A DNA stretch of 44,927 nt. It comes from a phage. Below are positions 6,144-44,927 of this stretch, piece after piece; position 1 is the stretch's first letter, and each line of letters begins with the position of its first letter. Made by a program: the position numbers and the translations under genes. Under the pieces are notes generated by a model that saw nothing but the letters and a program-made list of their open reading frames with translations, was not told the DNA's origin and made no database searches. Location: sequence record PZ871095.1; one strand, written 5' to 3'.

Positions 6144-6178
6144 TTTGTTTTCCTTCATATCTCTGTTGGTGTGCAACC

Positions 6179-6208
6179 AATATAATGCAACCAACATACG
6201 CAATGCAA
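6179..6208 (-). promoter_or_regulatory. putative sigma70-type promoter for the minus-strand gene pair (TTGCAT-N18-TATATT)
   Basis: Minus-strand reading cgcTTGCATtgcgtatgTTGGTTGCATTATATTGGTTGCAC; contains two copies of the recurring TTGGTTGCA motif; about 30 nt upstream of the ATG at 6143. Confidence 0.4.
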
Positions 6209-9210: not shown

Positions 9211-9804
9211 GTGGCTGAAGTCTACTCGTTCGCCGCCACTATTGCTACGTGGGTGGATAAGACGAAGGAGAACAACGACAAGGCGGTGCGGGCGTACGGT
9301 ATGCAAATACTCGGACGCCTGATCGAGATCTCCCCAGTGGGCGACCCCCGCCGGTGGAAAATTAACAGGGCTTACGCGCTCGCCCGCCAGCACGCAAACA
9401 AGGTGAACGCCGCACAGCGTCGCAAGAATGGCGGCAAACTGAAGCGTGGACAGAAGAAGCACGCAAGTGTGCTGGTATCGTTCAAGACTAAAAACGGCAA
9501 TGTAACATTTCGCCAGCGTGGCTGGGCCGCGAAGAATTACACCGGCGGGCGCTTCCGGGGGAACTGGCAGGTGACATTTGATCGCCCGGCTGTCGGTGCT
9601 ATTGACCGCGTTGACAAGGCCGGAACGGCAACATTAGCCGCGGGGCGTGAAGTGCTGGCGCATTACGATTCGAGTGAATACGGGTCGATCTGGTTTACTA
9701 ACAACGTGCCATACGCGCAGCGCCTGGAGTATGGCTGGAGTAAACAAGCGCCCGCGGGGATTGTTCGCGTAGTAGCGGCAGAAATTAATTCGAAGGTGAA
9801 ATAA
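9211..9804 (+). CDS. putative tail component (HK97 gp10-like)
   Basis: 197 aa, GTG start with AAGGGG ribosome-binding site; basic central segment; position between joining proteins and major tail protein. Confidence 0.5.
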   Translation: MAEVYSFAATIATWVDKTKENNDKAVRAYGMQILGRLIEISPVGDPRRWKINRAYALARQHANKVNAAQRRKNGGKLKRGQKKHASVLVSFKTKNGNVTFRQRGWAAKNYTGGRFRGNWQVTFDRPAVGAIDRVDKAGTATLAAGREVLAHYDSSEYGSIWFTNNVPYAQRLEYGWSKQAPAGIVRVVAAEINSKVK

Positions 9805-10226
9805 TGAGCAATACCGCAATCCGCAAAGCGCTTAACAGCGTGGTAGAAGAGTTATCGGTAAGCCTGAGCACTAGCCAGCGCCCGATCCAGGTTAACTGGG
9901 AGAACGTGAGCGGCGACCACGCAAACGGCAGCGGTGTCTACCTGGAGCCGTACCTGCTACCGGCCCCGACCCAGTTTGTGGGCTTCCAGCAGAAGGGCCG
10001 GATCTATGCTGGCGTATATCAGGTTGCCGTAGTGTTTCCCGCGGGCACTGGTACACAGTATGCGAGCGAACTGGCGGACGCCATCGCGACGTCGGATAAA
10101 TGGCAGGCCGTAAGGATTTCCGGAGCGGCCTTCCAGCTTCAGGACTCGCCTTATACCAGTTCGGTGGTCGAGGACGTTGATCGCGCCCGCATCGTGGTTA
10201 CAGTACCCTACACCTGTTGCGCCTGA
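9804..10226 (+). CDS. putative tail terminator / tail completion protein
   Basis: 140 aa, ATG overlapping the previous stop (ATAATG); gene immediately before the major tail protein. Confidence 0.5.
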   Translation: MSNTAIRKALNSVVEELSVSLSTSQRPIQVNWENVSGDHANGSGVYLEPYLLPAPTQFVGFQQKGRIYAGVYQVAVVFPAGTGTQYASELADAIATSDKWQAVRISGAAFQLQDSPYTSSVVEDVDRARIVVTVPYTCCA

Positions 10227-11760: not shown

Positions 11761-12012
11761 AAGCGGGACGTCCCGCTTTGTCCCGCCCTGTAAAACCGCA
11801 TATCTAATCACTTTCATTGCATAAACTCAAAGCGGGACAGGCGGGACGTCCCGTTTTGTCCCGCCCATGAAATGTGCATACCTATTCTAATTTCGTGCAT
11901 AAAACAAGCGGGACAGAAAGCGGGACAGACAAGGGGCGGGACAAAGCGGGACAGCACCCCGTCCCCGCCAGTGCTGCCGCGGTTTTCAGCCGATCGGGAC
12001 AAGCGGGACAAA
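11761..12012. repeat. cluster of GCGGGACA octamer repeats (about 12-14 copies, direct and inverted)
   Basis: Direct reading: GCGGGAC(A/G) recurs at roughly 11-16 bp spacing, including two GCGGGACGTCCCG palindromic hairpins followed by T-runs; starts right after the chaperone extension stop. Confidence 0.85.
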
Positions 12013-22212: not shown

Positions 22213-22292
22213 GGTATCATCCCCTATATTTGGTTGAGTTTTAGTATTACACCGCTCAACCAGGATTGCAACCAATTTATGAGGATTTAGCT

Positions 22293-25246: not shown

Positions 25247-25309
25247 AGTATTACCCTTTTTAGTGAGGGGGCTGTATTGCCCCGACGAGTTAACTATAAT
25301 GCAACCAAC

Positions 25310-25780
25310 CTATTGGTTGCAAGTGAATTTTGCAACGTTTATTGCGTAAATTTTCGGAACCAAATCACCACACGCCCGACGAATTGCCGCGATGTTCTTC
25401 TCGCAATCTTCAATGATGACCAGTTCCGACACGTCTGCGTAGCAGACCATTTTGAATACAGCGCACGCCTTAAACTCTGGCGGCGGGGTGTCGTCCAGCA
25501 TGTGGCGCATAAACAACCGGCCGTTCGGGAAGACCTCCAATTGCTCGGCGGTGGTGTCCCAACATTCTCGCTGCCGGTTGGTCAGATACGCGATCTCGAA
25601 GCCTTGCTCTTTATACATGCGCAGTAGCGGCAGCATATCCATGTTAAGGTCTTCGCGGACATGCGCCTTGTGCCACTTCGCCCAAAAGGTGGATTTAGTT
25701 TTTATGCCCGGCACCAAGTCGGCACGCGCATCACTTGAACCGTTAATAACGCCATCCAAATCGCAAATCAGTAATTTCAT
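25310..25780 (-). CDS. HAD-superfamily hydrolase (putative nucleotidase/phosphatase)
   Basis: 156 aa; N-terminal LLICDLDGVI matches HAD motif I (DxDG); ATG start. Confidence 0.65.
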   Translation of the reverse strand: MKLLICDLDGVINGSSDARADLVPGIKTKSTFWAKWHKAHVREDLNMDMLPLLRMYKEQGFEIAYLTNRQRECWDTTAEQLEVFPNGRLFMRHMLDDTPPPEFKACAVFKMVCYADVSELVIIEDCEKNIAAIRRACGDLVPKIYAINVAKFTCNQ

Positions 25781-26959: not shown

Positions 26960-26988
26960 AATATAATGCAACCAATCTAATTATGCAA
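26960..26988 (-). promoter_or_regulatory. putative sigma70-type promoter (TTGCAT-N17-TATATT) with TTGGTTGCA motif
   Basis: Minus-strand reading aTTGGTTGCATaattagaTTGGTTGCATTATATTgaggg, about 45 nt upstream of the ATG at 26912. Confidence 0.4.
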
Positions 26989-26993
26989 CCAAT

Positions 26994-36625: not shown

Positions 36626-36654
36626 ATATTAGATTGGTTGCAGAAGGGAGTCAA
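36626..36654 (-). promoter_or_regulatory. putative leftward early promoter (TTGACT-N17-TAATAT)
   Basis: Minus-strand reading TTGACTcccttctgcaaccaatcTAATAT; near-consensus sigma70 hexamers with 17-nt spacer containing GCAACCAA; heads the leftward gene block. Confidence 0.5.
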
Positions 36655-39591: not shown

Positions 39592-39697
39592 AGCGGGACA
39601 GAAAGCGGGACAAACAAGGGGCGGGACAAAGCGGGACAGCACCCCCGTCCCGCCCCGGATGGCGCGGCCCGGAGAGGAGCGGGACAGGCGGGACAAA
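39592..39697. repeat. cluster of GCGGGACA octamer repeats (about 7 copies), second locus
   Basis: aagcgggacagaaagcgggacaaacaaggggcgggacaaagcgggacagc...gagcgggacaggcgggacaa; highly similar to 11901-12012. Confidence 0.85.
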
Positions 39698-39749: not shown

Positions 39750-39909
39750 CATAAAATCCGGGGATTGCAAAATACACGGCAGCATGATGCGAAGTGCGGT
39801 CGTTGACGAACTAGGCAACCAATGCGAGTTGTATTATGCGGAGTGAAAAATGCGGTTTGCAGTCACAGCGGATAGCGATCAACTTTTTCATGCGCGTGAT
39901 TAATATTGG

Positions 39910-39938
39910 TTGCACACCCCCAGGCGTCCTGCTATATT
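39910..39938 (+). promoter_or_regulatory. putative sigma70-type promoter (TTGCAC-N17-TATATT) flanked by two TATTGGTTGCACACC repeats
   Basis: -35 and -10 hexamers with 17-nt spacer about 30 nt upstream of the ATG at 39967; the -35 lies within one TTGGTTGCA copy and the second copy follows the -10. Confidence 0.4.
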
Positions 39939-39966
39939 GGTTGCACACCAACATGAGGACTGAACA

Positions 39967-43248: not shown

Positions 43249-43276
43249 AAGCCCGGATAATTCCGGGCTTTTTATT
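43249..43276 (+). terminator. rho-independent terminator (GCCCGGA-taat-TCCGGGC + TTTTTATT)
   Basis: Perfect 7-bp stem with T-run immediately after the stop at 43242. Confidence 0.7.
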
Positions 43277-43327
43277 GCTTGACTCGCAACCAACACAGGG
43301 GCCATACTGCAACCAATCAACTGGAGG

Positions 43328-43408
43328 AGTAATCAAGATGGCACGTAAAGATATTTGGGTATTAGCGATCTGGACCACCGCGGCTTTTATCGGCATGGTT
43401 ATTTGCGA
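43328..43408 (+). CDS. very small hydrophobic peptide (26 aa)
   Basis: ATG preceded by strong GGAGGAG ribosome-binding site; MARKDIWVLAIWTTAAFIGMVICELI; not in the supplied track. Confidence 0.3.
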
Positions 43409-43479
43409 ATTGATATAGCCCGCCGCCATACGGACCGTGGTATATTGTCCACGGTCCACTAATCAGGAATTAATTAAAT

Positions 43480-44622
43480 ATGCACCCGCAAACTAAAATT
43501 ACCGATGAGCAATTGATCGCAGAAATTCAGGCCGGAACTACGGTTAAAGAGATTGCGAAGAAGTACGGCATTGCACTTCGAAATGTCTACATGCGCAAAG
43601 CCCGCCTGTCAAAAAAGGGGATTGGTCACGGTAATGATGCCGTAATCCGCAAGCGCGTTGCCGATGGCTTTGGGGTTAAGCGCGTATCGGCCCTGGTGCG
43701 CGGCAATGGCGAAGAGGTCATGTCGTGGGTCATCACTGAGCAGGACAAAGAGCGCCAACTCGAAGCCATGCGCGCTGTTGTCGAGGGTATGAACAGCGAA
43801 ATCACACCGGCAGCGCCAGTAAAAGCCCCGCCAGTACCGATCCAGGCGCTCGACTTGCTCAACCTGTACACCGTGTCAGACTTCCACCTGGGCATGTTGG
43901 CATGGGGCGAGGAGACTGGCGAAGACTGGGATATGGCGATCGCCGAAGACCTGTTCTACCGCTGGTTTGTCGAAGCCTTCGCACGCGCCCCGGACGCAGG
44001 CACTGCCGTAATTAATATCCTCGGTGATATGGCCCACTTTGATAGCCTCGATGCTGTCACTCCGGCAAGTGGTCACATACTGGACGCTGACACCCGCTAC
44101 CAGAAACTGGTCCGATACATGATTCGCATGGTGCGCAACGTAGTCGAACTGGCGCTGCAAAAACACCACAAAGTCAAACTGCTAATCGTCCAGGGAAATC
44201 ATGACGAATCGGGTATGATTTGGCTGGCTGAGATGTTCAATACTCTGTACGAGAACGAGCCGCGCGTCGATGTAGATACGTCACCGGACGTATACAAGAT
44301 GGTGCAGCACGGTAAGACCACGCTGTTTTTCCACCACGGGCACAAAGCGCGATTCGATGCTATCGAGCCGGTTATGATTTCTAAATTCAGACAGGCTTTC
44401 GGGTCCAGTGAGTACAGCTACGCGCACGTAGGCCACTTGCACCACCAGAAGATTGTAGAATCCCGCAACATGATTGTTGAACAGCACCGGACGCTCGCAG
44501 CGAAAGACGCCTACGCCAGCCGTGGTGGTTGGATGTCCGGTCGCAGCGCCAACGTCATTACCTACAGCGCCAACTACGGCGAAGTAGCGCGCTTAACCAT
44601 TAGCCCGGAAATGTTGAAATGA
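43480..44622 (+). CDS. HTH-domain / calcineurin-like metallophosphoesterase fusion protein
   Basis: 380 aa; N-terminal HTH-like TVKEIAKKYGIALRNVY; phosphoesterase motifs DFHLG (DxH), ILGDMAH (GDxxH), VQGNHDE (GNHD/E), FFHHGH and AHVGHLHH. Confidence 0.7.
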   Translation: MHPQTKITDEQLIAEIQAGTTVKEIAKKYGIALRNVYMRKARLSKKGIGHGNDAVIRKRVADGFGVKRVSALVRGNGEEVMSWVITEQDKERQLEAMRAVVEGMNSEITPAAPVKAPPVPIQALDLLNLYTVSDFHLGMLAWGEETGEDWDMAIAEDLFYRWFVEAFARAPDAGTAVINILGDMAHFDSLDAVTPASGHILDADTRYQKLVRYMIRMVRNVVELALQKHHKVKLLIVQGNHDESGMIWLAEMFNTLYENEPRVDVDTSPDVYKMVQHGKTTLFFHHGHKARFDAIEPVMISKFRQAFGSSEYSYAHVGHLHHQKIVESRNMIVEQHRTLAAKDAYASRGGWMSGRSANVITYSANYGEVARLTISPEMLK

Positions 44623-44831
44623 TTAGACAAGTATTCATGAGCACGCAGGCCGATCGCCTGAAAGAACTACGCAAACAACTCGAAGGCTTGCGCCGATTCG
44701 AACGAACGGCAGCGGCGGTAGGCATGTCTATCAGCGAACGGATCGAGATACTATCGCAAATACGCTACACAGAAGGCGCGATAAGAGAAGTACAAAGCAT
44801 GTTAACCCGATACTACGGGCGTGACGTTTAA
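44619..44831 (+). CDS. hypothetical protein
   Basis: 70 aa, ATG overlapping the upstream stop (ATGA); helical charged sequence; followed by a T-run. Confidence 0.5.
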   Translation: MIRQVFMSTQADRLKELRKQLEGLRRFERTAAAVGMSISERIEILSQIRYTEGAIREVQSMLTRYYGRDV

Positions 44832-44927
44832 CCCTCCCAGCCTGCCGATTTGGTGGGCTTTTTTGTGCCTGTTATAATCCCAATTAGATGGCAGGGCCGT
44901 CTCCTATGTTGCCGATGGTCGGCGCAT

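Follow-up and report, generated by a model that had tools for sequence, protein, structure and literature searches.

The window analysed here, by which we mean the whole 44,927 bp stretch of phage DNA in record PZ871095.1, is a complete Dhillonvirus genome (HK578-like E. coli siphophage). From the terminase small subunit gene (TerS) at base 1 onwards, the genome can be aligned collinearly with HK578 (NC_019724); the subject of this study, a gene joining a helix-turn-helix (HTH) to a metallophosphoesterase (MPE) domain, lies at its right end. The counterpart of this gene in HK578 is gp59, and T1 gp16 is a member of the same family; its product was 99.7% identical to a protein of phage UHP65 and 97.6% identical to p56 of Shigella phage EP23, annotated as 'phosphoesterase'. 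Residues 5-380 aligned to positions 2-390 of the 390-position profile of PHROG 704 ('DNA repair exonuclease') with E = 2e-161, and T1 gp16 as well as the Vibrio and Ruegeria homologues also matched this profile. The gene is a member of a known and catalogued family, carrying the label 'phosphoesterase' or 'DNA repair exonuclease' in GenBank and RefSeq; the PHROG 704 name is an annotation made through remote homology, which is also the only basis on which function in this family is known. Its members HK578 gp59, T1 gp16 and EP23 p56 have the same two-domain architecture as the window protein, with nothing material to set them apart, and TLS gp66 is probably another homologue. We regard the product as probably a DNA nuclease. 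The gene and the parts of its protein were located as follows, the motifs being read from the translation:

43480-44622, plus strand: HTH-MPE gene, an intact open reading frame (ORF) of 380 amino acids with an ATG start
43504-43614, plus strand: HTH of the LuxR/GerE/sigma-70 region 4 type, residues 9-45 (helices 9-17, 22-29 and 33-45)
43669-43797, plus strand: conserved beta-hairpin (residues 64-88) and helix 90-106
43846-44619, plus strand: MPE catalytic domain with motifs I-V, residues 123-380
43879-43887, plus strand: MPE motif I, D134-F-H136
44023-44037, plus strand: MPE motif II, G182-D183-M-A-H186
44035-44109, plus strand: family-specific loop HFDSLDAVTPASGHILDADTRYQKL, residues 186-210
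44194-44205, plus strand: MPE motif III, G239-N240-H241-D242
44332-44343, plus strand: MPE motif IV, H285-H286-G287-H288
44431-44442, plus strand: MPE motif V, G318-H319-L-H321

The initial annotation had described an N-terminal HTH fused to a complete set of MPE motifs, and this description was borne out: the ORF is as given there, motifs I-V are all present and they are conserved in an alignment of 91 relatives whose representatives were only 32-47% identical to the query. Ten residues were invariant in this alignment (D134, H136, G182, D183, N240, H241, H286, G287, G318 and H321), and five more were at least 90% conserved (H186, D242, H285, H288 and H319). Because this level of conservation of catalytic residues extends across 91 divergent relatives, the motif set is no chance pattern, and the MPE domain is, as far as its residues can tell, apparently active. 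The invariance of the catalytic residues also means that homology is not confined to inactive paralogues, a case which the initial annotation had raised against itself.

Scores against the general Pfam models fell just below their gathering cut-offs (Metallophos, 20.0 vs 21.5 bits; Metallophos_2, 22.3 vs 27 bits), and only 24 and 13 of the 91 relatives, respectively, matched these models even at E ≤ 0.01. Such sub-threshold scores are a sign of a divergent family, the cut-off being an operational rather than a biological criterion. In an AlphaFold2 model built from a 38-sequence alignment (predicted local distance difference test score, pLDDT, 78.3), the beta-alpha-beta-alpha-beta sandwich of MPE enzymes was present. 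The loop at residues 186-210 was the most conserved stretch of the family, with a mean identity of 59% compared to 46% for the whole catalytic domain, and its core (residues 189-205) was the part modelled worst by AlphaFold2 (pLDDT < 50); it may be a family-specific loop that binds a substrate or a partner.

The N-terminal HTH was modelled as a compact helical bundle with a recognition helix, which superposed on known DNA-binding domains. Its GerE score in the window protein was below the gathering cut-off (15.2 vs 23.5 bits), and the HTH of homologues reached 2.4e-8 for GerE and 1.5e-9 for Sigma70_r4_2. On these profile matches the HTH is real and of the class predicted to read sequence in double-stranded DNA. 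It evolves much faster than the catalytic domain, mean identity being 18% for the HTH and 46% for the MPE domain. Between the two, residues G77 and W83 of the beta-hairpin were invariant in the close-relative alignments (A3 and A6) and at least 90% conserved in the 91-member alignment (A4); the region formed by this hairpin and helix 90-106 gave no convincing structural match.

The best Foldseek match of the model was an Mre11-DNA complex. When a profile of the MPE domain only was searched against all PDB sequences, the sole MPEs among the matches were Mre11/SbcD (E = 0.07-0.25) and a Pseudomonas putida 'Nuclease MPE' (E of about 2), and in the profile alignment SDxHLG, GDxxH, GNHD and GHxH stood in register with SDWHLG, GDLLH, GNHD and GHIH of Thermotoga maritima Mre11 (TmMre11). 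We take the near-invariant H186 to correspond to the motif II histidine of Mre11, which Williams et al. in 2008 are said to have implicated in exonuclease action. A PDB sequence search with the single protein returned only spurious matches to designed repeat proteins, and searches of NCBIfam and PADLOC gave no meaningful match for the HTH-MPE protein. A PPP-type Ser/Thr phosphatase similar to lambda NinI was also considered; neither the GDxHG, GDxVDRG and GNHE motifs nor a close fold match of that type was found.

The family is widespread. A tblastn search detected a PHROG 704-type gene in 2,063 of 50,697 phage records, or ~ 4% of sequenced phage genomes, with carriers including Dhillonvirus, Kagunavirus, Jerseyvirus and Drexlerviridae (T1-like, many of them Klebsiella phages) as well as Vibrio, Ruegeria and Campylobacter phages. 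When all 1.84 billion cluster representatives were scanned, 4,649 clusters reached E ≤ 1e-3 and 1,130 reached E ≤ 1e-30, the more than 4,600 family clusters being counted at 50% identity. Members were mostly 370-420 amino acids long, which points to the same two-part architecture. Within Drexlerviridae, the gene was classed as persistent, occurring in 508 of 522 genomes (PMC13164509), and it is core to this family and ordinary for such phages. Such persistence, and the count of 2,063 phage records, would be expected of a core function in the life cycle more than of a variable accessory gene.

Gene neighbourhoods were compared in 14 lineages: Dhillonvirus, T1/Changchunvirus, Jerseyvirus, Vibrio, Ruegeria, an E. 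coli lambdoid prophage, Campylobacter F370 and seven metagenomic phages. In eight of the 14, the HTH-MPE gene was positioned inside a replication/recombination block or at its distal end, its neighbours in such blocks including VRR_NUC, NinB, NinG, a RecA-dependent nuclease, DnaB and ligase. The order in T1/Changchunvirus was helicase, VRR-NUC, Dam, small ORFs, MPE and lysis genes, the terminase lying at a distance of ~ 32 kb; that in the E. coli lambdoid prophage was cI | cro, Lin1244_N, variable cargo, MPE, DnaB (after an 18-nt gap) and NinB. Across the prophage loci (L007-L009, L014 and L015; the gene lies at 10001-11119 of L007), the MPE gene was fixed upstream of a DnaB-family helicase gene, while the gene upstream of it varied (an ANT/Bro protein or a DUF4379 protein). 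In one further lineage VRR_NUC overlapped the start of the MPE gene and NinB was also present; neighbours in other lineages included a RecA-dependent nuclease and NinG, and in the Ruegeria phage the MPE gene adjoined a DNA methylase gene.

Campylobacter phage F370 carried a homologue of 317 amino acids that lacked the HTH (L017, 4848-5801; 29% identity over the catalytic domain) and was placed directly after a T4 gp30-like DNA ligase gene, with a Holliday-junction resolvase gene further upstream. This homologue was annotated as 'T1 gp16-like recombination endonuclease', and the ligase-MPE order echoes that of bacterial ligase-associated MPE nucleases. Elsewhere the gene was found as an inverted cassette within the tail genes (Jerseyvirus) or between lysis and head genes (Vibrio phage). 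In one metagenomic phage (L011), a gene of the Acb2/Tad1-hairpin family, a family of anti-CBASS/anti-Thoeris sponges, was observed at 9565-9927, 1.4 kb downstream of the homologue and after a lysozyme gene.

The initial annotation had also placed the gene next to the terminase genes, provided that the genome is circular. The two genes concerned open the window:

1-573: TerS (phrog_3064 at 7.9e-73)
573-1958: terminase large subunit (TerL)

In bov22_1, a relative with a differently permuted sequence, MPE, small ORF, TerS and TerL followed one another unbroken; since the two ends of the window are contiguous there, the adjacency is real in the window genome. The same position directly before the terminase was found in two of the 14 lineages, Dhillonvirus and L010, the latter being an unrelated metagenomic phage in which a lambda-type Nu1/GpA terminase stands beside the homologue.

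Four lines of evidence make DNA the likely substrate: the Foldseek match to an Mre11-DNA complex, the profile matches to Mre11/SbcD, the fused HTH of the class reading double-stranded DNA and the recombination and replication neighbours. The suggestion in the initial annotation of a DNA-targeted nuclease fits the same fold and weak sequence matches to Mre11/SbcD and the neighbours seen in other lineages, and from these we infer nuclease chemistry. A more specific proposal, which we put forward tentatively and with somewhat less than even confidence, is that of an HTH-tethered, metal-dependent DNA exo/endonuclease acting in phage replication, recombination and repair. The N-terminal LuxR/sigma-4-type HTH would hold the protein on double-stranded DNA, while the C-terminal binuclear-metal MPE phosphodiesterase, whose closest characterised relatives are Mre11/SbcD, would cut DNA phosphodiester bonds. 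Such a protein could be viewed as a stand-alone 'Mre11 without Rad50', a predicted Mn2+/Mg2+-dependent exo/endonuclease in which the HTH would take over the holding of DNA from the Rad50/SbcC clamp and the capping domain, and its substrates might be DNA ends, hairpins or branched intermediates arising during replication, recombination and repair of phage DNA. If this is correct, a stand-alone HTH-tethered Mre11-like nuclease would represent a new architecture in the phage nuclease repertoire and would have a bearing on defence systems sensing DNA ends or the products of degradation.

Several observations weigh against this proposal. The Mre11/SbcD matches were not individually significant (E ≥ 0.07), and hhalign against E. 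coli SbcD gave a probability of 2.6%, with only the GNHD motif aligned. Structural scores barely separated nucleases from other MPEs (13.4 for MJ0936 and 11.4 for Rv0805). The model contained no Mre11-type capping domain, the protein ending at residue 380 as the final strands of the MPE core are completed, and no Rad50/SbcC partner was annotated in the collinear HK578 genome or beside homologues in the 14 lineages, a survey of annotations that did not include a dedicated profile search of every ORF in the window. In three lineages the MPE gene was surrounded by tail or late genes, and none of its neighbours belonged to DNA metabolism. Another exonuclease (phrog_69) and a gp2.5-like protein for annealing are already encoded by the phage, which leaves no obvious need for a second nuclease in recombination. 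A full-text literature search returned no biochemical or genetic study of any PHROG 704 member; papers on OLD, RAZR, Metis, PANGU, PUA-Cal-HAD and daunorubicin mentioned Dhillonvirus or T1-like phages and made no mention of the HTH-MPE gene.

Mre11, SbcD and T4 gp47 have a capping domain and a Rad50, SbcC or gp46 partner, whereas the HTH-MPE protein has an N-terminal HTH and the conserved loop 186-210 instead; it may work like Mre11/SbcD, yet by sequence similarity, capping domain and annotated Rad50 partner it falls outside that family. The small subunit DP1 of archaeal DNA polymerase D (PolD), an MPE proofreading exonuclease, differs in having an OB fold and no HTH and in working bound to the DP2 polymerase, and T1-like phages encode no polymerase of that type. 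The ligase-associated nuclease type (PdeM / P. putida 'Nuclease MPE') is alike in being a small stand-alone MPE DNA endonuclease with a weak motif III match, but the match reached 12.9 bits against a cut-off of 150, and both its size and its N-terminal domain are different.

The surroundings of the gene in the window appear to form a self-contained cassette made up of a promoter-like site, a 26-residue ORF, a hairpin, the HTH-MPE gene, a 70-residue ORF and a terminator-like hairpin, arranged as a putative transcription unit:

43249-43270, bidirectional: intrinsic-terminator-like hairpin with a 9-bp stem (six G-C pairs) and a T-run, ending the upstream lysis/Ig-like block
43279-43308, plus strand: sigma-70 promoter-like site TTGACT-N18-CATACT, 9/12 consensus matches
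43285-43293 and 43308-43316, minus strand: two operator-like TTGGTTGCA half-sites (the first with one mismatch, the second exact) overlapping the promoter-like site
43338-43418, plus strand: first gene of the cassette, a 26-residue ORF MARKDIWVLAIWTTAAFIGMVICELI with a GGAGGAG Shine-Dalgarno sequence and a hydrophobic, transmembrane-like product
43432-43457, plus strand: perfect 9-bp inverted repeat GGACCGTGG-N8-CCACGGTCC between the 26-residue ORF and the HTH-MPE gene
44619-44831, plus strand: last gene of the cassette, an HK578 gp60-like ORF of 70 residues overlapping the HTH-MPE gene (ATGA) and matching PHROG 20931 over its full length (5.1e-48)
44839-44859, plus strand: intrinsic-terminator-like hairpin with a T-run, closing the cassette ~ 70 nt before the TerS start at window position 1

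Much of this arrangement was kept in five Dhillonviruses. The hairpin at 43249-43270 was retained in all five, EP23 differing in the 4-nt loop and in the closing pair (A-T to T-A, still complementary); the -35 hexamer of the promoter-like site was invariant, with a -10 sequence of TATACT in EP23; and the 26-residue ORF kept its frame and stop position despite substitutions. The HK578 RefSeq record has no annotation for this ORF. The inverted repeat at 43432-43457 was unique in the genome, with an RNA folding energy of -18.8 kcal/mol (z = -2.2), and relatives showed single mismatches and no compensatory changes. It is a candidate RNA hairpin or operator and, having no T-run, is not a typical terminator. 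As a conserved palindromic operator for autoregulation it did not hold up, being confined to Dhillonvirus and having no counterpart upstream of homologues in eight other lineages. Nor could a conserved two-gene module with the downstream small ORF be recognised: a small ORF follows in several lineages, and the six compared had no detectable homology.

Two short repeats are over-represented in the genome. TTGGTTGCA occurred in 12 exact copies, and in 25 with no more than one mismatch compared to 11.9 ± 3.7 in shuffled sequences; GCGGGACA occurred in 18 exact copies against 2.1 ± 1.5 expected. The TTGGTTGCA sites lay at the following positions:

6172-6194
22267-22275
25300-25321
26967-26992
36634-36642
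39906-39945
43285-43316

Nearly all TTGGTTGCA copies were intergenic, mostly paired and situated beside -10-like TATA boxes, and one pair was inverted (TGCAACCAA-N4-TTGGTTGCA, 25300-25321). HK578 contained 11 copies and T1 only two. From its placement, TTGGTTGCA looks like an operator half-site of a phage regulator at early or middle promoters. GCGGGACA formed two iteron-like clusters, one of nine copies at 11779-12010, in the gap that precedes the tape-measure gene, and one of six at 39593-39695, just after the helicase-primase gene; both are candidate origins or binding arrays. Over-representation of the two repeats was specific to Dhillonvirus among the loci compared.

Other functions can be read from the same architecture. 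A DNase for host takeover would degrade the bacterial chromosome, with the HTH providing DNA affinity, and would thereby shut off host expression and defences and supply nucleotides; we consider this possible though unlikely. The fold and motif evidence is shared with the proposed replication and recombination nuclease, and the biology of related phages adds to it: T1 and TLS degrade the host genome through a gene that the authors call unknown (PMC11447400), and T1 gp16 and its probable homologue TLS gp66 are nuclease-like genes with no assigned role. There are also analogous phage MPE-type proteins tied to DNA degradation. Gp48 of the cluster A mycobacteriophage A10ZJ24 is an MPE that degrades DNA both in vitro and in vivo (PMC12287305), and T5 A1, a predicted metallophosphatase whose own nuclease activity was not shown in vitro, is necessary and sufficient for host DNA degradation (bioRxiv 10.64898/2026.04.02.716235). 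In addition, a Tunavirinae phage is restricted by a defence system able to sense a host DNA degradation product (bioRxiv 10.64898/2026.01.15.699771). The PHROG 704 family is an obvious and cheaply testable candidate for host-genome degradation by T1-like phages. Against such a role, a temperate lambdoid prophage has homologues beside DnaB, in its early operon, where wholesale destruction of host DNA is not expected, the sparing of the phage's own DNA is left unexplained, and the fast-evolving HTH (18% vs 46%) suggests lineage-specific targets rather than generic host DNA; there is also no detectable sequence kinship with T5 A1, which belongs to a separate PHROG. Speculatively, and with slightly lower confidence again, PHROG 704 could be the host-chromosome-degrading enzyme of T1-like and related siphophages, or else an HTH-guided nuclease cutting lineage-specific phage sites to start recombination-dependent replication. 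A site-directed 'Mre11 without Rad50' of the latter kind would explain both the DnaB-adjacent position in prophages and the fast evolution of the HTH.

The HTH is central to the idea of a transcription regulator or replication factor that binds lineage-specific phage sites (TTGGTTGCA half-sites or GCGGGACA iterons), with the MPE domain either nicking locally to start replication or recombination, or acting as a sensor. An HTH of the sequence-specific class that evolves much faster than the catalytic domain agrees with such a role, as do the 12 TTGGTTGCA sites at mostly promoter-like positions, the cassette's own included, the two GCGGGACA clusters, and the location of the prophage gene directly before DnaB, where initiators or loaders are often encoded. 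We nevertheless find this decidedly unlikely: our computational analyses gave nothing that links either repeat to this HTH rather than to other phage HTH proteins, and other HTH proteins of the window, such as the gp45-like protein upstream of the helicase-primase gene, could bind the repeats. The Lin1244_N-type protein of the prophage may, by its Pfam family, be the replication organiser there, and the Campylobacter homologue has no HTH at all. More doubtful still is a small-molecule phosphodiesterase or anti-defence enzyme hydrolysing cyclic mono-, di- or oligonucleotides or other nucleotide derivatives, with autoregulation through the HTH. Rv0805, YfcE, MJ0936 and GpdQ were good structural matches too, the cassette has the look of an autonomous unit in which a unique palindrome separates promoter-like site and gene, and an Acb2/Tad1-like gene is found near the homologue in one metagenomic phage. 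However, the gene is persistent across whole families, unlike typical anti-defence genes, its neighbours are genes of DNA metabolism rather than anti-defence, and its sequence-level affinity among solved MPEs is to nucleases only; PADLOC and NCBIfam gave no match, and the eight other lineages had no conserved palindromic operator upstream. Positive evidence for this activity is limited to generic fold similarity and to a palindrome that only Dhillonvirus has.

An accessory nuclease working with TerS/TerL in pac/cos cleavage or concatemer resolution, a packaging role of the kind raised in the initial annotation, is the least supported of these explanations and in our view highly improbable. The gene adjoins TerS in the window genome and the terminase in the unrelated L010 phage, but this is the case in just two of the 14 lineages: the genes are ~ 32 kb apart in T1, the cassette is inverted among tail genes in Jersey-like phages, and other positions are occupied in the Vibrio, Ruegeria, Campylobacter and prophage lineages. 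Within the window genome, terminator-like hairpins flank the cassette, one of them lying between it and TerS, and the gene has a promoter-like site of its own. The large-subunit match of TerL covers its C-terminal part, the usual place of a presumed nuclease domain. The accessory nucleases known to us beside terminases are HNH proteins, and the HTH-MPE protein is not one. The adjacency is best explained by genome layout and not by a packaging role: the genome order is modular (non-structural, then lysis, then packaging genes), and on the circular map the cassette comes at the distal end of the non-structural genes.

Neither Gp48 nor T5 A1 was a detectable sequence relative of the PHROG 704 family. 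Gp48 differs in being shorter, to judge from its residue numbering, and apparently in having no HTH, since none is described; in the tblastn summary, Mycobacterium did not figure among the ten organism names met most often. Kinship with T5 A1 was examined and set aside, A1 matching phrog_1745 only, with an hhalign probability of 19% over 19 columns and a BLASTP E value of 0.17. The sole segment aligned by hhalign, residues 389-407 of T5 A1 (L013) against residues 233-251 of the window protein, corresponded to an extended motif III, (V/I)xxxNHDxxxSxWL, and this shared motif may hint at a very distant link between T5 A1 and PHROG 704.

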